Part shown: in pieces, positions 35,004 through 39,605 of the stretch
How the letters are laid out: each line of letters begins with the position of its first letter
How positions within the stretch are numbered: position 1 is the first letter of the stretch
Origin: an uncultured Candidatus Saccharibacteria bacterium
Lineage (GTDB): Bacteria > Patescibacteriota > UBA1384 > JAGGWG01 > CAZAJM01
Length of the DNA stretch: 64,000 bases
Direction of reading: 5' to 3'
Assembly (NCBI GenBank): GCA_964485625.1
Contig: CAZAJM010000004.1
Coordinates: 3,349-67,348, forward strand
Position numbers and translations under genes: made by a program
The notes under the pieces: generated by a model
The model's input: only the letters and a program-made list of their open reading frames with translations
Told to the model about the DNA's origin: nothing
Database searches by the model: none

Positions 35004-35241
35004 ATCTCTTAAGATCTAAGATTCGGACAAGAATGTTCCTCGGCTTCACAAATGTGAAGACGGGATCAACCTTGCGCCACCGATAAGTATATCGGCGACA
35101 TTCCTATTAGAAAGGAGGTATTCCATCCGCAGATTCCCCTACGGAAACCTTGTTACGACTTTGTCCCAGTCACTGGCTTCACCTTTATTCCACACAAGGT
35201 GGAATGTCCAGTGCCTCCAGCTTCTTTGACATGACGGGCGG

Positions 35242-36054
35242 ATTCTGATAGTTGAAGCAAACTTCAGGTTCCCACTAAGCATGCAGATTTCCCGCACTTA
35301 GCGAGTCCTTAATGCATTTTGTTTTTTAGATTAATAATTTTATCTAGTCCTTTCTCCGTGTAATGCTCCTTGTTTTCAATTAATTCCATAATTCTGGAAA
35401 ATAATTCAAAATCATTTCTTTTGGAGTTACTTCTTAAAGGATTTTCTCTAAAAAACTTGATGATTTTTTTGACGTCTTCAAGTCTTGAGGCTTGATATCG
35501 GTAGCACGTAGAATGATTTTTTCTACGATCTCTTTGAATGTATACAATGCCAAACCCTAAATATTCTTTTATCTGATAGAGCACCTGTTTGTCAAATGCT
35601 TTTAGCTTGATAACAAACATAGGCACAACTCTATTTCTGGTGCCATCGTCTTTTTTCTTTTTTACATAGACGTGAAAACACCCTTCTCCATCAGTTAAAC
35701 CGACTAAATAATCATCAGTAAGCATTAGGTTTTGTCCTTCCCTCGGCAAGTTTTGCCGGGTACTATGACTCAGCTGACTTCTTATGTTATTCATTTGCTT
35801 CTAGTATAACATAAGATCTCCCTGGATTAAATAAATTACTATTCCACACATCCCACGAATTTCTATAATATATTTTTACTTCCCTAACACACACCGGTTA
35901 GGTCGTAAAAAATGGTTTTAATGAAGTAATGATGGGCTATGTTTTGCCGTTGAGTCCTACAGTCAGTATCTCACGATAATTGACCTACTCTTGGCTATAT
36001 AAAAGGATTTTAACCTTTTAGCAAAATATCCTGCCAGGCGTCTTTATTAATTTT
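35242..36054 (-). mobile_element. 16S intervening sequence 1 at the decoding-centre helix (E. coli ~1398/1399), encoding a LAGLIDADG endonuclease
   Basis: Exon sequence ...gacgggcgg stops at 35241 and resumes tgtgtacaag at 36055. Boundaries are +/- a few nt. No terminal G is evident, so the intron class is undetermined. Confidence 0.7.
35309..35794 (-). CDS. LAGLIDADG homing endonuclease (single-motif type) inside 16S insertion 1
   Basis: 161 aa with LVGLTDGEGCFHVYV. Confidence 0.8.
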   Translation of the reverse strand: MNNIRSQLSHSTRQNLPREGQNLMLTDDYLVGLTDGEGCFHVYVKKKKDDGTRNRVVPMFVIKLKAFDKQVLYQIKEYLGFGIVYIQRDRRKNHSTCYRYQASRLEDVKKIIKFFRENPLRSNSKRNDFELFSRIMELIENKEHYTEKGLDKIINLKNKMH

Positions 36055-36381
36055 TGTGTACAAGACTCGAGAACATATTCACCGTAATGTGGCTGACTTA
36101 CGGTTACTAGCGATTCCATCTTCATGGAGTCGAATTTCAGACTCCAATCCGTACTGGGGTACATTTTAAGGGATTAGCTCCGTCTCGCGACTTGGCGAAA
36201 CCCATTGTATGTACCATTGTAGCGCGTGTGTCGCCCAAGACATAAGGGTCATGCTGATTTGGCGTCATCTCCACCTTCCTCCGTGTTGACCACGGCAGTC
36301 CTCTATGACAGATTTAACATAGAGCAGAGGTTGCGCTCGTTCAGGGACTTAACCCGACGTTTCACAACACGAGCTGACGAC

Positions 36382-37243
36382 CATGTTATTCCATTATTGC
36401 TAATGGCATGGACTATACCATCTTCCTTCATGAGGAAGTCAATGATTAATAGCAGTTACAGCCTGCTATTAGGACTACTAGACCTTTAGTAATAGTCACA
36501 AGTCTCTAAGGGCAATTTTATCTGATATTTTAATTGAGTATTTTTTCATTTCACTTATAGCTTTTTTTGCTGTATCTATTGTGAAATATAGACAATACGT
36601 TCCAGCAGATTTGTAATAATAGACTCTTGTATCAAGATTTAGCTTTTTTAACAAACCCTGATCAGTTTTAGTCTCTTGCTCATTTCCATAAACAATCCTC
36701 ATGTCATTTACCAGATTGTTACTTATTGAGCCGTCACCATCAAATCTTCCGCTGACATAAGAATATATGTCAGTCTTATTGTCTAGATTACGTATCAGTT
36801 TCTTAGATTTTTTGAAATTATATAACAGTTTTCTGTCATTTACATAAATTTGATAAGCAACCAATTTTCCGTTTTTATTTGGATAAATTTTATAGTTACG
36901 TATTTTTTCAGCTAACAGATTGTCAATATTTCTGTTTAAAGGCCGATATATTCTTAATTTTATTCTTTCGTTAGAATAATTAGCCTTTTTGAAAAAATTA
37001 TAAAACTTCCAAATGAGTTTAACGTTACAGTTGGTTAAGCCTACACTACTGGTTCTGTGGTATCCATCTGCACACCAAAGCCCAATAATATATTTATGTT
37101 TCAGTAAATCATAATTGCCCACGGAATTACCTTATTAATACTATTACTATTGTAACATGAATCGTATTAATTTGCTATAAGGTTTCTCCGTTTTGAATTG
37201 ATTTTTCCACTAGAAATTACTTTCTAGGGGGTCATTATTAAAT
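36382..37243 (-). mobile_element. 16S intervening sequence 2 (E. coli ~1052-1056 region), encoding a LAGLIDADG endonuclease
   Basis: Exon ...gagctgacgac stops at ~36381 and resumes aaccatgcaacacctgt at ~37244. The catg on both sides makes the junction ambiguous by 4 nt. Confidence 0.65.
36496..37122 (-). CDS. LAGLIDADG homing endonuclease (double-motif) inside 16S insertion 2
   Basis: 208 aa with IIGLWCADGYH and SGRFDGDGSI. Confidence 0.8.
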   Translation of the reverse strand: MGNYDLLKHKYIIGLWCADGYHRTSSVGLTNCNVKLIWKFYNFFKKANYSNERIKLRIYRPLNRNIDNLLAEKIRNYKIYPNKNGKLVAYQIYVNDRKLLYNFKKSKKLIRNLDNKTDIYSYVSGRFDGDGSISNNLVNDMRIVYGNEQETKTDQGLLKKLNLDTRVYYYKSAGTYCLYFTIDTAKKAISEMKKYSIKISDKIALRDL

Positions 37244-37520
37244 AACCATGCAACACCTGTCATCTGGCTCCCAAAGGGCACCTCCGATTTTCATCAGAGT
37301 TCCAGAGATGTCAAGTCTTGGTAAGGTTCTTCGCTTATTATCGAATTAAACCACACGCTCCACCGCTTGTGCGAGTCCCCGTCAATTCCTTTGAGTTTCA
37401 ATCTTGCGATCGTACTTCCCAGGCGGATCACTTAACGCGTTAGCTTCGAGACCAAACGGGGTCGATGCCGCCTAATCTCTAGTGATCATCGTTTACAGCT
37501 TTGACTACAGGGGTCTAAAT

Positions 37521-38535
37521 ATTTGCTCACATTGCTGTGAGGATTGGACTATATCATTTTCTAAAAATTTTCCATTTATTTTTTCTACTGCTAACAATTT
37601 TTTCAATTGTTGAATGAGAAAAATTTGTTAAATGGCTTATTCTAGAAATCCAGTTTTGTTGGCGTTTATGATCTTGATAAAGCAGTAAAATTTTATACAA
37701 CATACTTATTTGTTGTATGTTCGGCGCAATTATTGTAAAAAACCTTTTAAGGGCTTTTTCTGAATACAGGTTTAACCTGATTCTTTTATTTACAATTCCA
37801 ATTTTAGTTTCAATATTCCATTTTACTTGTAAATACTCTTTCAATAACTGAACTTCATTTTTTGAAAAACTATCTGTGCAAAAAACTCCTTTTCTAGCGT
37901 TGCCTATTATTGAACCGTCGTCTAGCCACCATACAGCTAAAGATAATTTGTCTAGATTATCTAGCCATTCTTTACTTATGGTTTTTACGTTGTTTGGATT
38001 CGTTATTTTCCAAATCTTAGTTAATTCAGGCAAAGCTCTACTTTGAAATCTTAGTTTTTTGTATCCGTAACTGCTATTGTCATTGCTTTCATCTTGTTCC
38101 CATACTGCATTGTTTGATGAAATAACCGACAATTTGGCAGCTTTCCAAAAAAAGTATTCTTGTTGTTTCTTTGAATGTCTATATGAGAATCTGGCATTTT
38201 TATACCCATTATGTATTTTTAAACTGCCATCTCCTAATAAAGATCCAAATATTATTGCTTTAGCTTGATCTGAATTAAATAATTTATCCATACTTGTTAG
38301 TATTATATCATAACAAACTATTTAATTCTCAGACACCATAGTCTCTACAGGGCCCGATATCATTTGCATAATATCAGACTCCCTCGGAATTGCCTTAAAA
38401 CACATGCTGTAGTAATCATGTTTTAAATTAAGGTTTCTCCGATAAAACTGAATGCACACTTTAGCATTGCTGCTAAAGGGGACACCTTTTGTTACTATTT
38501 ATTGAATAACGTCTATGAGACGTCAACGCGGTAAC
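37521..38535 (-). mobile_element. 16S intervening sequence 3 near the 790 loop (E. coli ~790-800), encoding a LAGLIDADG endonuclease
   Basis: Exon ...gactacaggggtctaaat stops at ~37520 and resumes gggatttatctaatccctttcgctacc at ~38536. Both flanks carry GGGTATCTAAT-like sequence, so the boundaries are +/- 15 nt. Confidence 0.6.
37554..38291 (-). CDS. LAGLIDADG homing endonuclease (double-motif) inside 16S insertion 3
   Basis: 245 aa with IIFGSLLGDGSL and WWLDDGSI. Confidence 0.8.
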   Translation of the reverse strand: MDKLFNSDQAKAIIFGSLLGDGSLKIHNGYKNARFSYRHSKKQQEYFFWKAAKLSVISSNNAVWEQDESNDNSSYGYKKLRFQSRALPELTKIWKITNPNNVKTISKEWLDNLDKLSLAVWWLDDGSIIGNARKGVFCTDSFSKNEVQLLKEYLQVKWNIETKIGIVNKRIRLNLYSEKALKRFFTIIAPNIQQISMLYKILLLYQDHKRQQNWISRISHLTNFSHSTIEKIVSSRKNKWKIFRK

Positions 38536-39605
38536 GGGATTTATCTAATCCCTTTCGCTACCAAAGCTTTCGTGCCTCAGCGTCAGAACAGACCTAGCAA
38601 ATTGCCTTCGCTTTCGGTGTTCCCTGTGATATCAACGGATTTCACCCCTACACCACAGGTTCCATTTGCCTCTGTCTGCCTCAATTTTGATAGTTTCCTT
38701 GGCGCTTTTCCTGTTAGGCAGGAAAATTTAACCAAAGACTTATCAAAACGCCTACGCACCCTTCACGCCCAATGATTCCGGATAACGCTCGCCCTCTATG
38801 TATTACCGCGACTGCTGGCACATAGTTAGTCAGGGCTGATAGCATGGTAAGTTCAAGATTTATTCCCATGCATTAGAACTTTACAATCCGAAGACCGTCT
38901 TCGTTCATGCGGTGTCGCTGCATCACCCGTTAGGGCATTGTGCAAGATTCCCCATTGCTGCCTCCCGTAGGAGTATGGACCGTGTCTCAGTTCCATTGTG
39001 GGGGGTCACGCTCTCACGTCCCCTAGCCGTCATAGCCTTGGTAAGCTTTTACCTTACCAACAAGCTGATAGCGAGCAGGTTCCTCTCAAAGCGCCGGAGC
39101 ATTTACTGCTAAGAAAATTAATTCATAGCAGACTATCAGGAATTGTTCCCAGTTTCCCGGGGTTATTCCTGTCTTTGAGGTAGATACCTACCTGTTACTC
39201 ACCCGTCCGCCGAGCAACCGAAGTTGCTCTCGACTTGCATATGTTAGGCACACCGCCAGCGTTAATCCTGAGCCGGGATCAAACTCTCCATAAAAATTGT
39301 CTTCTTTTTATCTTTATTTTTAACTCGTCTTAAAAAAGAAAGGGAAGACGAGTATTCTTGTCCGAGTCTCAGATCTTAACACTATTTGTTAAAGTACTAT
39401 TTAAAAAGCCTCTAACGAGAGGCGGTTAAAGCTACCAATATTTGTAATATTTTCTACAAATGCCTCCCAATACTTATTACTTTCTAAATTATAGTCTTAG
39501 TCTAAACAATCTAATTGCTGTTGTCAAGGGTATTGATATGAGTAGTTAATAGAACAAAAAAAGCTCGAATATGTAACAATTTATATTATATGTTAATATT
39601 ACGAG

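Follow-up and report, generated by a model that had tools for sequence, protein, structure and literature searches.

The 16S ribosomal RNA (rRNA) gene in a 64,000-nucleotide (nt) stretch of DNA from an uncultured Candidatus Saccharibacteria bacterium, hereafter the window, is interrupted by three insertions, which we classify as self-splicing homing introns of group I, group I and group IIC-like type residing in a functional gene; we put the probability of this classification at about 85%. Each insertion contains one long open reading frame (ORF) of the LAGLIDADG endonuclease type on the strand of the gene, and the three ORFs are intact with many full-length homologues each. The arrangement as such is already well documented in uncultured ultrasmall bacteria and in giant sulfur bacteria. 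The evidence developed here consists of exon junctions, guide pairings and ribozyme helices derived by comparing each insertion with relatives at the same position in other genomes.

The gene occupies 35109-39294 (4,186 nt; all coordinates are window positions, and the 16S gene with everything in it lies on the minus strand), as outlined by two matches to the Rfam model RF00177, at 38501-39294 (673 bits) and 36057-37392 (275 bits, with an internal gap of 873 nt), and by aligning the concatenated exons with E. coli 16S rRNA. Four exons sum to 1,483 nt: exon 1 (39294-38543; 752 nt; E. coli 1-793), exon 2 (37514-37244; 271 nt; E. coli 794-1060), exon 3 (36381-36055; 327 nt; E. coli 1061-1398) and exon 4 (35241 to about 35109; 133 nt; from E. 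coli 1399 up to the 3' end and including the anti-Shine-Dalgarno sequence CCUCCUUU). Joined, they align with E. coli 16S from end to end without a break, at 71% identity, and the joins exactly restore GGAUUAGAU^ACCCC, GCAUGGUU^GUCGUCAGC and GUACACA^CCGCCCGUC, where the caret marks a junction. The insertions, of 1,028, 862 and 813 nt by a reading of the strand and the positions of the conserved flanks, stand after E. coli U793, U1060 and A1398. An earlier note, made from the sequence of this DNA, had proposed three insertions at roughly these positions, each with its own LAGLIDADG ORF and one of them between ACACA and CCGCCCGUC; Rfam matches, ORF and Pfam assignments and the flanks all agree with it on this, and its expectation that the exon pieces would concatenate into a contiguous 16S sequence was borne out.

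The E. coli numbering was obtained through primer sites. The reference record lacks 22 nt ahead of position 493, so that the 515F, 785F and 1392R sites fall in it at 493, 763 and 1370; measured against the standard coordinates of these sites, this offset converts the junctions at 771, 1038 and 1376 of the record into standard positions 793, 1060 and 1398. The record itself (L001 among the loci fetched for comparison; NZ_CP091836.1 1798480-1799999; 1,520 nt) is unlike E. coli K-12 in the region 400-490, and the RefSeq genome from which it comes may contain an rRNA copy that is chimeric or wrongly assembled.

Placement of the first two junctions turns on bases that exon and intron share. At site 1 the first base of the intron and the first base of the 3' exon are both A, leaving an ambiguity of 1 nt, and the junction can consequently be placed as GAUUAGAU^AAAUCC...AUUUAG^ACCCC, with an exon U before the intron and a G at its end. 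A metagenome scan with an alignment of the intron 1 protein, together with contig look-ups, gave 29 relatives at the identical nucleotide, all 29 of which have G directly before ACCC and variable bases preceding that G. At site 2 the exon and intron ends likewise share bases (CAUGG/U..G), and the intron-less sequence, GG-YYG-UCGUCAGC in 80 loci, forces the junction GCAUGGUU^AUUUAA...AACAUG^GUCGUC; the distinct relatives of intron 2 (12 of 12) all stand after GG(U/C)U and have G as their last base. The claim of the earlier note that neither a terminal G nor a preceding exon U is evident at any insertion is thus wrong for introns 1 and 2, and insertion 3 is the one that has neither. The same division applies to its suspicion that the insertions may not be canonical group I introns, which is justified for insertion 3, not a member of group I, and unfounded for introns 1 and 2, which carry group I cores.

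Intron 1 (37515-38542; 1,028 nt; terminal omega-G at G37515) follows U793 and is assigned to group I from its 29 relatives, the Rfam group I model RF00028 and covariation. Its 5' 291 nt align to RF00028 with 22.3 bits (E = 9e-4), with elements P, Q and R in register; this does not reach the gathering score of 50 bits, and a search of the 4.6-kb region returned no match for the intron at E <= 1. The ORF splits the core. In an alignment of 25 sequences the 37 modelled pairs are 89% paired and 23 of the 37 have changed on both sides, a degree of agreement found in 0 of 500 shuffles. P2, P4, P5 and P6 covary, as does P9, and the S strand GAUAUAGUCC is invariant. Read from the 5' end, the structure begins with the P2 hairpin and its GNRA loop (38459-38478; 100% paired, 8/8 pairs changed on both sides). 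The 5' half of the core (38384-38453) follows, with the 5' strand of P3, AUUCAGUU (38453-38446), the P element or 5' strand of P4, UCGGAGAAACC (38442-38432), P5 (38433-38393) and the Q element or 3' strand of P4, AAUUCCGA (38391-38384). P6 (38383-38350) and R, the 5' strand of P7, GUAGAGACUA (38348-38339), occupy 38339-38383. The 3' half (37526-37655) comprises the 3' strand of P3, AACUGGAU (37655-37648), P8 (37647 to about 37559), S as the 3' strand of P7 (37555-37546) and the P9 hairpin (37541-37526). P8 is assigned only for the window and its relative L086, since a duplex search gave low-complexity, shifting solutions. Reading GUAGAGACUA as J8/7 plus the 3' strand of P7 was dropped for the classical R and S assignment.

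P3 of intron 1, which was identified through comparison with intron 2, places the coding sequence relative to the ribozyme. Its 5' strand reads AU(C/U)(C/U)AG(C/U)U and precedes J3/4, and its 3' strand, (A/C)(A/G)CUGGAU, lies inside the ORF, with S exactly 100 nt downstream of it in 20 of the 29 relatives and within 1 nt of that spacing in 22; in the clade to which the window belongs, a C-G pair has become U-A, a compensatory change. The ORF in question, ORF1 (37554-38291; 245 aa), encodes a LAGLIDADG_2 protein with two LAGLIDADG-like motifs (LLGDGS and LDDGS), scores 129 bits in Pfam against a cut-off of 25 (E = 2e-37) and has 1,045 homologues; the 3' strand of P3, AACUGGAU, coincides with its invariant W-I-S codons. 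Because this strand lies upstream of S and within the coding sequence, ORF1 is placed between the R and S elements; P3', P8 and part of J8/7 are formed by the 3' end of the same coding sequence. Two other P3 candidates, CUAU/AUAG and GCUAUAUCG/UGAUAUAGU, were rejected; here, as for P1 and P8, alternatives were set aside for want of positional conservation, for clashing with the covariation of P4 and P7, or for being absent from the window clade.

Recognition of the 5' exon by intron 1 appears to be unusual. The first bases of the intron, AAUCCC (38535-38541), pair with exon GGGAUU (38552-38547) and leave the splice site in a 5-nt loop; across the family this helix, formed between AAAUCC(C/U) at the start of the intron and exon (G/A)GGAUU, is 96% paired, and its closing pair covaries between A-U (15 sequences) and G-C (6). 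Just before P2 stands a candidate internal guide, GGUGUCC (38478-38486), invariant in 25 of 25 sequences. It would form a P1 of only 3-4 base pairs (bp), gau(A)/(U)GUC, with G.U at the splice site; it is placed like the GACC guide of the related intron 2 family, and GGUGUC is the sole candidate that puts a G opposite U793. We infer that GUC would pair with exon gau and that GGU would pair with acc of the 3' exon as P10. The S793 family may therefore use a bipartite recognition of the 5' splice site, in which AAUCC pairs with exon GGAUU, the 5' strand of the helix-24 or 790 loop, and a minimal P1 of 3-4 bp is added; on such a reading the invariant GGUGUC may stand after a large L1 insertion, with the W-I-S codons of ORF1 serving as the 3' strand of P3. 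A guide GUCUGA, placed in P6 or in the P5 loop, and a tail, AUCUACAAG, pairing with both exons, were rejected on the grounds given above.

Intron 2 (36382-37243; 862 nt; omega-G at G36382) follows U1060 and is assigned from its 12 distinct relatives and RF00028. The model aligns weakly to both halves of the window intron (20.1 and 17.5 bits), short of the gathering score of 50 bits, which its two ORF-less relatives also fail to reach while scoring 47.3 bits (L106, E = 1e-9) and 40.3 bits (L163, E = 1e-7). On the intron side, P1 is formed by AUU-UAAU-AAU followed by the guide GACC (37230-37243), pairing with exon GGUU and putting a U.G pair at the junction. Ten relatives show P1 clearly: exon GGUU goes with the guide GAC(C/U) in 7 of them and GGCU with GGCC in 3, so that the U/C difference at exon position 1059 is matched by A/G in the guide, a compensatory change. 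The core (36391-37229), derived from the sequence and from comparison with the ORF-less relatives, comprises P2 (37229-37207), the 5' strand of P3, UCAAU (37201-37197), P ACGGAGAAACC (37191-37181), Q AAUUCCGU (37128-37121), R UUAGAGACU (36509-36501), P7.1 (36497-36473), P7.2 (36471-36447), the 3' strand of P3, AUUGA (36443-36439), P8 (36438-36422), S AUGGUAUAGUCC (36421-36410) and a GNRA-capped P9 (36406-36391). In the ORF-less relatives P3 is ACCAGC/GCUGGU. P7 and P3 are separated by two extra hairpins both there and in the window, by which intron 2 looks IA-like. ORF2 (36496-37122; 208 aa; GTG start) lies between Q and R, with R inside its 3' end; its product is LAGLIDADG_3-like, carries the motifs WCADGY and FDGDGS, is borderline in Pfam (24 bits against a cut-off of 22.5) and has 258 homologues, with PF14528 in nearly all of those listed. 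Introns 1 and 2 are related group I introns.

The ORF-less introns at S1060, 316 nt in L106 (3993-4308) and 282 nt in L163 (2989-3270), are useful as minimal ribozymes. Their occurrence beside ORF-bearing introns shows gain or loss of an ORF at one and the same site.

Intron 3 (35242-36054; 813 nt), between A1398 and C1399, belongs to a different class, combining a group II ribozyme of IIC-like type with a LAGLIDADG gene. A scan of species-representative genomes with an alignment of its protein gave 80 loci, to which loci from earlier searches were added; 74 loci have an insertion of approximately 815-1,030 nt at exactly UUGUAC(A/U)CA^...^CCGCCCGUCA. In the 74-sequence alignment of their 3' ends, pairing in the modelled domains V and VI amounts to 94.7%, with two-sided changes at 15 of the 21 pairs; 0 of 500 shuffles reached these values, and slid controls of the same model were 33-43% paired. 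Domain V (35305-35271) has a CGC triad, lower and upper helices of 10 and 4 bp, a 2-nt bulge and a GAAAU loop; it is 98.4% paired, with 8 pairs changed on both sides, and its triad C-G / G.U / C-G is near-invariant (70-71 of 74), as in class IIC. Domain VI (35267-35245) covaries at 7 of 7 pairs and bulges an A (35249), 7 nt short of the 3' splice site, that is conserved in at least 90% of sequences. The last two bases of the intron are AU. Upstream, exon-binding site 1 (EBS1), UGUGU in a hairpin loop (35889-35893) about 105 nt upstream of domain III, pairs with exon ACACA, the intron-binding site (IBS1). This pairing covaries: exon ACACA is met by UGUGU in 16 of 16 cases, ACUCA by UGAGU in 32 of 59 and by UGGGU in 14 of 59, and ACUCG by CGAGU in 3 of 3, which sets the 5' splice site directly after A1398.

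Domain II, J2/3 and domain III (35734-35816) match RF01998 (group-II-D1D4-1) with 33.3 bits in the window and 32.9-36 bits in L002, L008, L016 and L051; the cut-off of 35 is reached by one relative, L016 (36.0), and not by the window. RF00029 and RF02001 gave weaker matches in relatives, RF00029 attaining 32.5 bits against a cut-off of 40 in L016. The group I and group II model searches envisaged by the earlier note therefore returned matches to all three insertions, each beneath its cut-off (22.3 and 20.1 bits for RF00028, 33.3 bits for RF01998). At the 5' end (36038-36054), GUGYG does not stand directly at the splice site of intron 3; the A-rich 12-nt linker AAAAUUAAUAAA (36054-36043) precedes the motif, here GACGC (36042-38). 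Linkers in this position are typically 7-8 nt (8 nt in 53 of 77 relatives), with 12 nt in the window and L002, and the motif is UGCGC or UGUGC, resembling GUGYG, in the relatives and GACGC in the window and L002.

ORF3 begins right after domain III and ends 3 nt before domain V, and hence lies in domain IV. Called as 35309-35794 (161 aa), it probably starts at Met24 (35309-35725; 138 aa), since the majority of its homologues, at 138-142 aa, cover 86% of the query. Its product is a LAGLIDADG_1 protein (75.6 bits against a cut-off of 23.1, E = 6.5e-21) with a single motif, LTDGEG, and it matches each half of the double-motif fungal enzymes I-OnuI, I-LtrI and I-AabMI at E of about 1e-32. No reverse transcriptase domain was found in intron 3.

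The relatives of intron 3 lie mostly in metagenome-assembled genomes (MAGs) of Patescibacteria. Others come from MAGs labelled Gemmataceae (L006), Omnitrophota (L021), Thermodesulfatator (L059), Nanoarchaeota (L081) and 'Gammaproteobacteria' (L005, L009, L018-20), which are either mis-binned rRNA contigs of the Candidate Phyla Radiation (CPR) or a sign of real spread beyond it. Two variants were seen among these loci. Six relatives (L032, L035, L038, L045, L054 and L057) keep domain VI and have an unrelated hairpin in the place of domain V (for example GGGAAGCGGCAUGGUUCAGAUUUUAAAAAAUCUGGAGGGAAC) within the last 75 nt or so; they may be degenerate ribozymes or an alternative element. Eight (L012, L024, L026, L042, L077 and L082-L084) have the 3' flank UCGCCC, an intron end ...CAU and GUGAG in the EBS1 loop, and look like an insertion of this same group II intron at the next nucleotide, after C1399.

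What follows on splicing, exon ligation, branching as against hydrolysis, and the activity and specificity of the endonucleases is inferred. The primary transcript of introns 1 and 2 would fold into a core of P3-P8 and P4-P6 domains; a guanosine cofactor would attack after the exon U, and the terminal G would then bring the 3' splice site into place for the exons to be joined. Intron 3 would act as a compact IIC-like ribozyme whose EBS1 loop fixes the 5' splice site by pairing with the last five exon bases, with domain V as the catalytic center and with the bulged A of domain VI available for branching, unless water attacks instead, as has been proposed for introns with a 5' linker. By analogy with characterized enzymes, each LAGLIDADG endonuclease, encoded in a peripheral loop, would cut intron-less 16S genes at the same conserved site, and DNA repair would copy the intron into them; the proteins might in addition help the RNA to fold.

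Several observations weigh against this picture of three active introns. No window intron reaches an Rfam gathering score, the best being 22.3, 20.1 and 33.3 bits against 50, 50 and 35. A canonical P1 is missing from the 5' end of intron 1, where the exon is otherwise paired to the first bases of the intron. The deviant GACGC motif of intron 3 means that the window copy could be impaired.

The sub-threshold scores would also suit insertions that are intervening sequences (IVSs), cut out by RNase III or a similar enzyme without ligation and leaving the 16S rRNA in pieces, as happens with 23S IVSs in Salmonella, Leptospira or Coxiella; IVSs are known in bacteria and probably occur in 23S genes of the CPR (PMC11270868). 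However, the cores of all three insertions are under purifying selection with compensatory changes, the relatives of introns 1 and 2 without exception have a terminal G, and the guides covary with the exons. Conservation of core, terminal G and guide has no role in excision by RNase III; the known IVSs, moreover, occupy the variable tips of helices and are absent from the 790 loop, helix 34 and the decoding center. We consider an IVS origin very unlikely.

We give just as little credence to the idea that this is a dead 16S copy that has collected mobile elements while a functional copy exists elsewhere. Only 64 kb of the genome is in view, and the 5' motif of intron 3 deviates; yet the exons align over the full length and keep universally conserved positions, relatives in other samples share these introns along with exons of 97-98% identity and unbroken ORFs, and one rRNA copy is usual in CPR genomes (PMC11270868). 

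Where close relatives share exons at 97-98% identity (L086/L087 for intron 1 and L002 for introns 2 and 3), the encoded proteins are less similar, at 70% for ORF1, 83% for ORF2 and 89% for ORF3, which means that the introns evolve faster than their host gene or have been replaced by homing.

A non-canonical or unknown element, such as the bulge-helix-bulge introns of archaea to which the earlier note pointed, was a natural thought while the junctions as first drawn lacked an exon U and a terminal G, and intron 3 truly lacks both. With the junctions redrawn, U and G frame introns 1 and 2 in every relative, and group I and group II cores are present, making such an element, for which no dedicated bulge-helix-bulge search was made because these cores account for all three insertions, highly improbable; the bulge-helix-bulge splicing endonuclease, moreover, is not known from bacteria. 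Finally, metagenomic rRNA operons are hard to assemble, and rRNA fragments might have been joined to unrelated endonuclease genes, but an assembly chimera has next to no probability given identical or near-identical junctions in independent Logan, ENA, JGI and NCBI assemblies and intron families at the same nucleotide position in dozens of genomes. The gene itself recurs in independent assemblies, in one case identical (L085) and in others with exons 97-98% identical (L002-L004 and L086/87), so the interrupted 16S is not an assembly artefact. To the named CPR 16S genes among the fetched loci the window exons are only 71-79% identical, while the predominance of Patescibacteria MAGs among the intron relatives is suggestive of a CPR host, short of a placement.

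Self-splicing introns in a functional gene also fit what has been described for the CPR. Tsurumaki et al. (2024) found insertions in 48% of 380 CPR 16S genes, with up to 16 insertions and 5,627 bp per gene, and assigned 134 to group I and 53 to a group II-like class by Rfam (PMC11270868). The earlier note, in calling three endonuclease-bearing insertions in one gene notable, thus overstated their rarity. In the same survey, group II-like insertions occurred only at about position 1400 (site 16IS9), and 39 of the 53 encoded LAGLIDADG_1; LAGLIDADG_2 and LAGLIDADG_3 were located in group I insertions, and one CPR LAGLIDADG enzyme was shown to cleave its own insertion site (PMC11270868). Removal of CPR rRNA insertions from transcripts is credited to Brown et al. 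(2015) as relayed there (PMC11270868). The window gene conforms to this pattern in having several insertions in one 16S gene, all within highly conserved rRNA regions, in the ORF-bearing and ORF-less versions found at a single site, and in combining group I cores with LAGLIDADG_2 and LAGLIDADG_3 and a group II-like insertion near 1400 with LAGLIDADG_1. Whereas the survey is based on Rfam matches only, the junctions, guide pairings and helices reported here were derived by comparison.

Introns 1 and 2 resemble classical group I introns such as that of the Tetrahymena large subunit (LSU) rRNA in that R (GUAGAGACUA and UUAGAGACU) and S (GAUAUAGUCC and GGUAUAGUCC) form P7, P and Q form P4 with AAA and CAA junctions, a terminal G and an exon U bound the intron, and P2 and P9 are capped by GNRA loops. 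Two additional hairpins separate P7 from P3 in intron 2 and the related ORF-less introns, as in subgroup IA; the phage T4 td intron is an example of this P7.1/P7.2 type. Intron 1 departs from the classical form in two respects, having no normal P1, with the 5' exon held by AAUCC and only some 3-4 bp that could form with the candidate guide, and having a coding sequence, ORF1, that doubles as P3', P8 and J8/7.

For intron 3 the closest counterpart is the 'rns-1396' family of Liu et al. (2026), which has a IIC backbone, a single-motif LAGLIDADG homing endonuclease (LHE) in domain IV and a 5'-terminal linker in all members (PMC13190283). The family lacks EBS2, its LHE clusters with fungal ones, and it has been reported only from four genera of Thiotrichaceae (PMC13190283); the intron was first seen in Thiomargarita namibiensis by Salman et al. 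(2012), according to the account in PMC13190283. Intron 3 shares with it the 16S region (ACACA^CCGCCC), a IIC-type domain V with the CGC triad, the lack of a reverse transcriptase, a single-motif LAGLIDADG_1 gene in domain IV, the 5' linker, the IBS1/EBS1 pairing and an endonuclease related to the fungal I-OnuI type. It differs in its host, which is outside the Thiotrichaceae, with 74 or more relatives mostly in Patescibacteria MAGs, in numbering (1398/1399 as against 1396), and, for the window copy, in the greater length of its linker (12 nt) and in reading GACGC rather than UGCGC. The comparison was made with the published description of the family rather than with a Thiomargarita sequence, and on features read from the DNA, domain I being represented by EBS1, intron 3 appears to match that description feature by feature except in host range. 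A single widespread IIC-LHE family may embrace both the '16S position 1400' insertions of the CPR and the 'rns-1396' introns of Thiotrichaceae.

Group II introns that carry LAGLIDADG genes reportedly also occur in fungal mitochondrial rRNA genes, where group IIB1 introns with such ORFs and 5'-terminal insertions are said to have been described by Toor and Zimmerly in 2002 and by Mullineux et al. in 2010. Li, Costa, Michel et al. are likewise said to have found, in 2011, extra 5' nucleotides in LAGLIDADG-bearing mitochondrial rRNA group II introns, the linker usually going together with loss of the branch-point A. These introns resemble intron 3 in joining a group II ribozyme to a LAGLIDADG gene within an rRNA gene, and they are reported to have lost EBS2 and to move by a DNA-based route. 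In contrast to intron 3, which is IIC-like with a single-motif enzyme encoded in domain IV, they reportedly have a IIB1 backbone, mostly double-motif enzymes and an ORF that is often in domain III; and whereas their linker is usually said to accompany loss of the branch-point A, the family of intron 3 keeps the bulged A in at least 90% of its members. If the CPR and Thiotrichaceae introns are indeed one IIC-LHE family that retains the branch-point A despite a 5' linker, branching could start 7-12 nt from the conserved 5' motif. The combined proposal, bipartite 5' splice-site recognition in the S793 family together with a single widespread CPR and Thiotrichaceae IIC-LHE family keeping its branch-point A, is one that we advance tentatively and regard as rather doubtful when taken as a whole.

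These results do not overturn current understanding. They add one host lineage to the intron-rich rRNA genes of the CPR and to the group II introns in which a LAGLIDADG endonuclease has replaced the reverse transcriptase, and they provide a structure, supported by covariation, for each of the S793 and S1060 families. The comparative set, with 29 relatives of intron 1, 12 of intron 2 and at least 74 of intron 3, connects two bodies of literature in which the position-1396/1400 intron has been described separately. The remaining interest lies in the atypical pairing of the 5' exon at S793, in the overlap of coding sequence and ribozyme in ORF1, and in the link between CPR-1400 and rns-1396 introns with a branch-point A kept despite the linker.

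There is also a practical consequence. The 785F/806R and 1392R primer sites each hold an intron, and amplicon surveys and many rRNA callers would accordingly miss, truncate or mis-size this 4.2-kb 16S gene, much as the earlier note anticipated for primer-based surveys; Rfam itself reported just two 16S fragments and missed part of exon 2 and all of exon 4. The 515F site (38800-38822, minus strand) reads GUGCCAGCAGUCGCGGUAA, with U replacing the usual C, a mismatch that, on top of the introns in the other primer sites, would further hide the lineage from amplicon surveys.

Within 35109-58579 the rRNA genes of the window are unlinked and divergent: 16S is on the minus strand, and the plus strand carries 23S and 5S at a distance of 14 kb. 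tRNA-Ile(GAU) (40223-40298) lies upstream of 16S and on the same strand, and tRNA-Ala(UGC) (50047-50120) is 3.2 kb upstream of 23S. The 23S gene (53377-58280, plus strand) is interrupted too: an LSU match at 53377-56723 is followed by a separate fragment of the LSU 3' end at 58104-58277, three sub-threshold RF00028 matches (33-39 bits) fall at 55634-55829, 55854-56102 and 56686-56969, and internal ORFs are present at 55336-55752 (138 aa) and 57115-57588 (157 aa).

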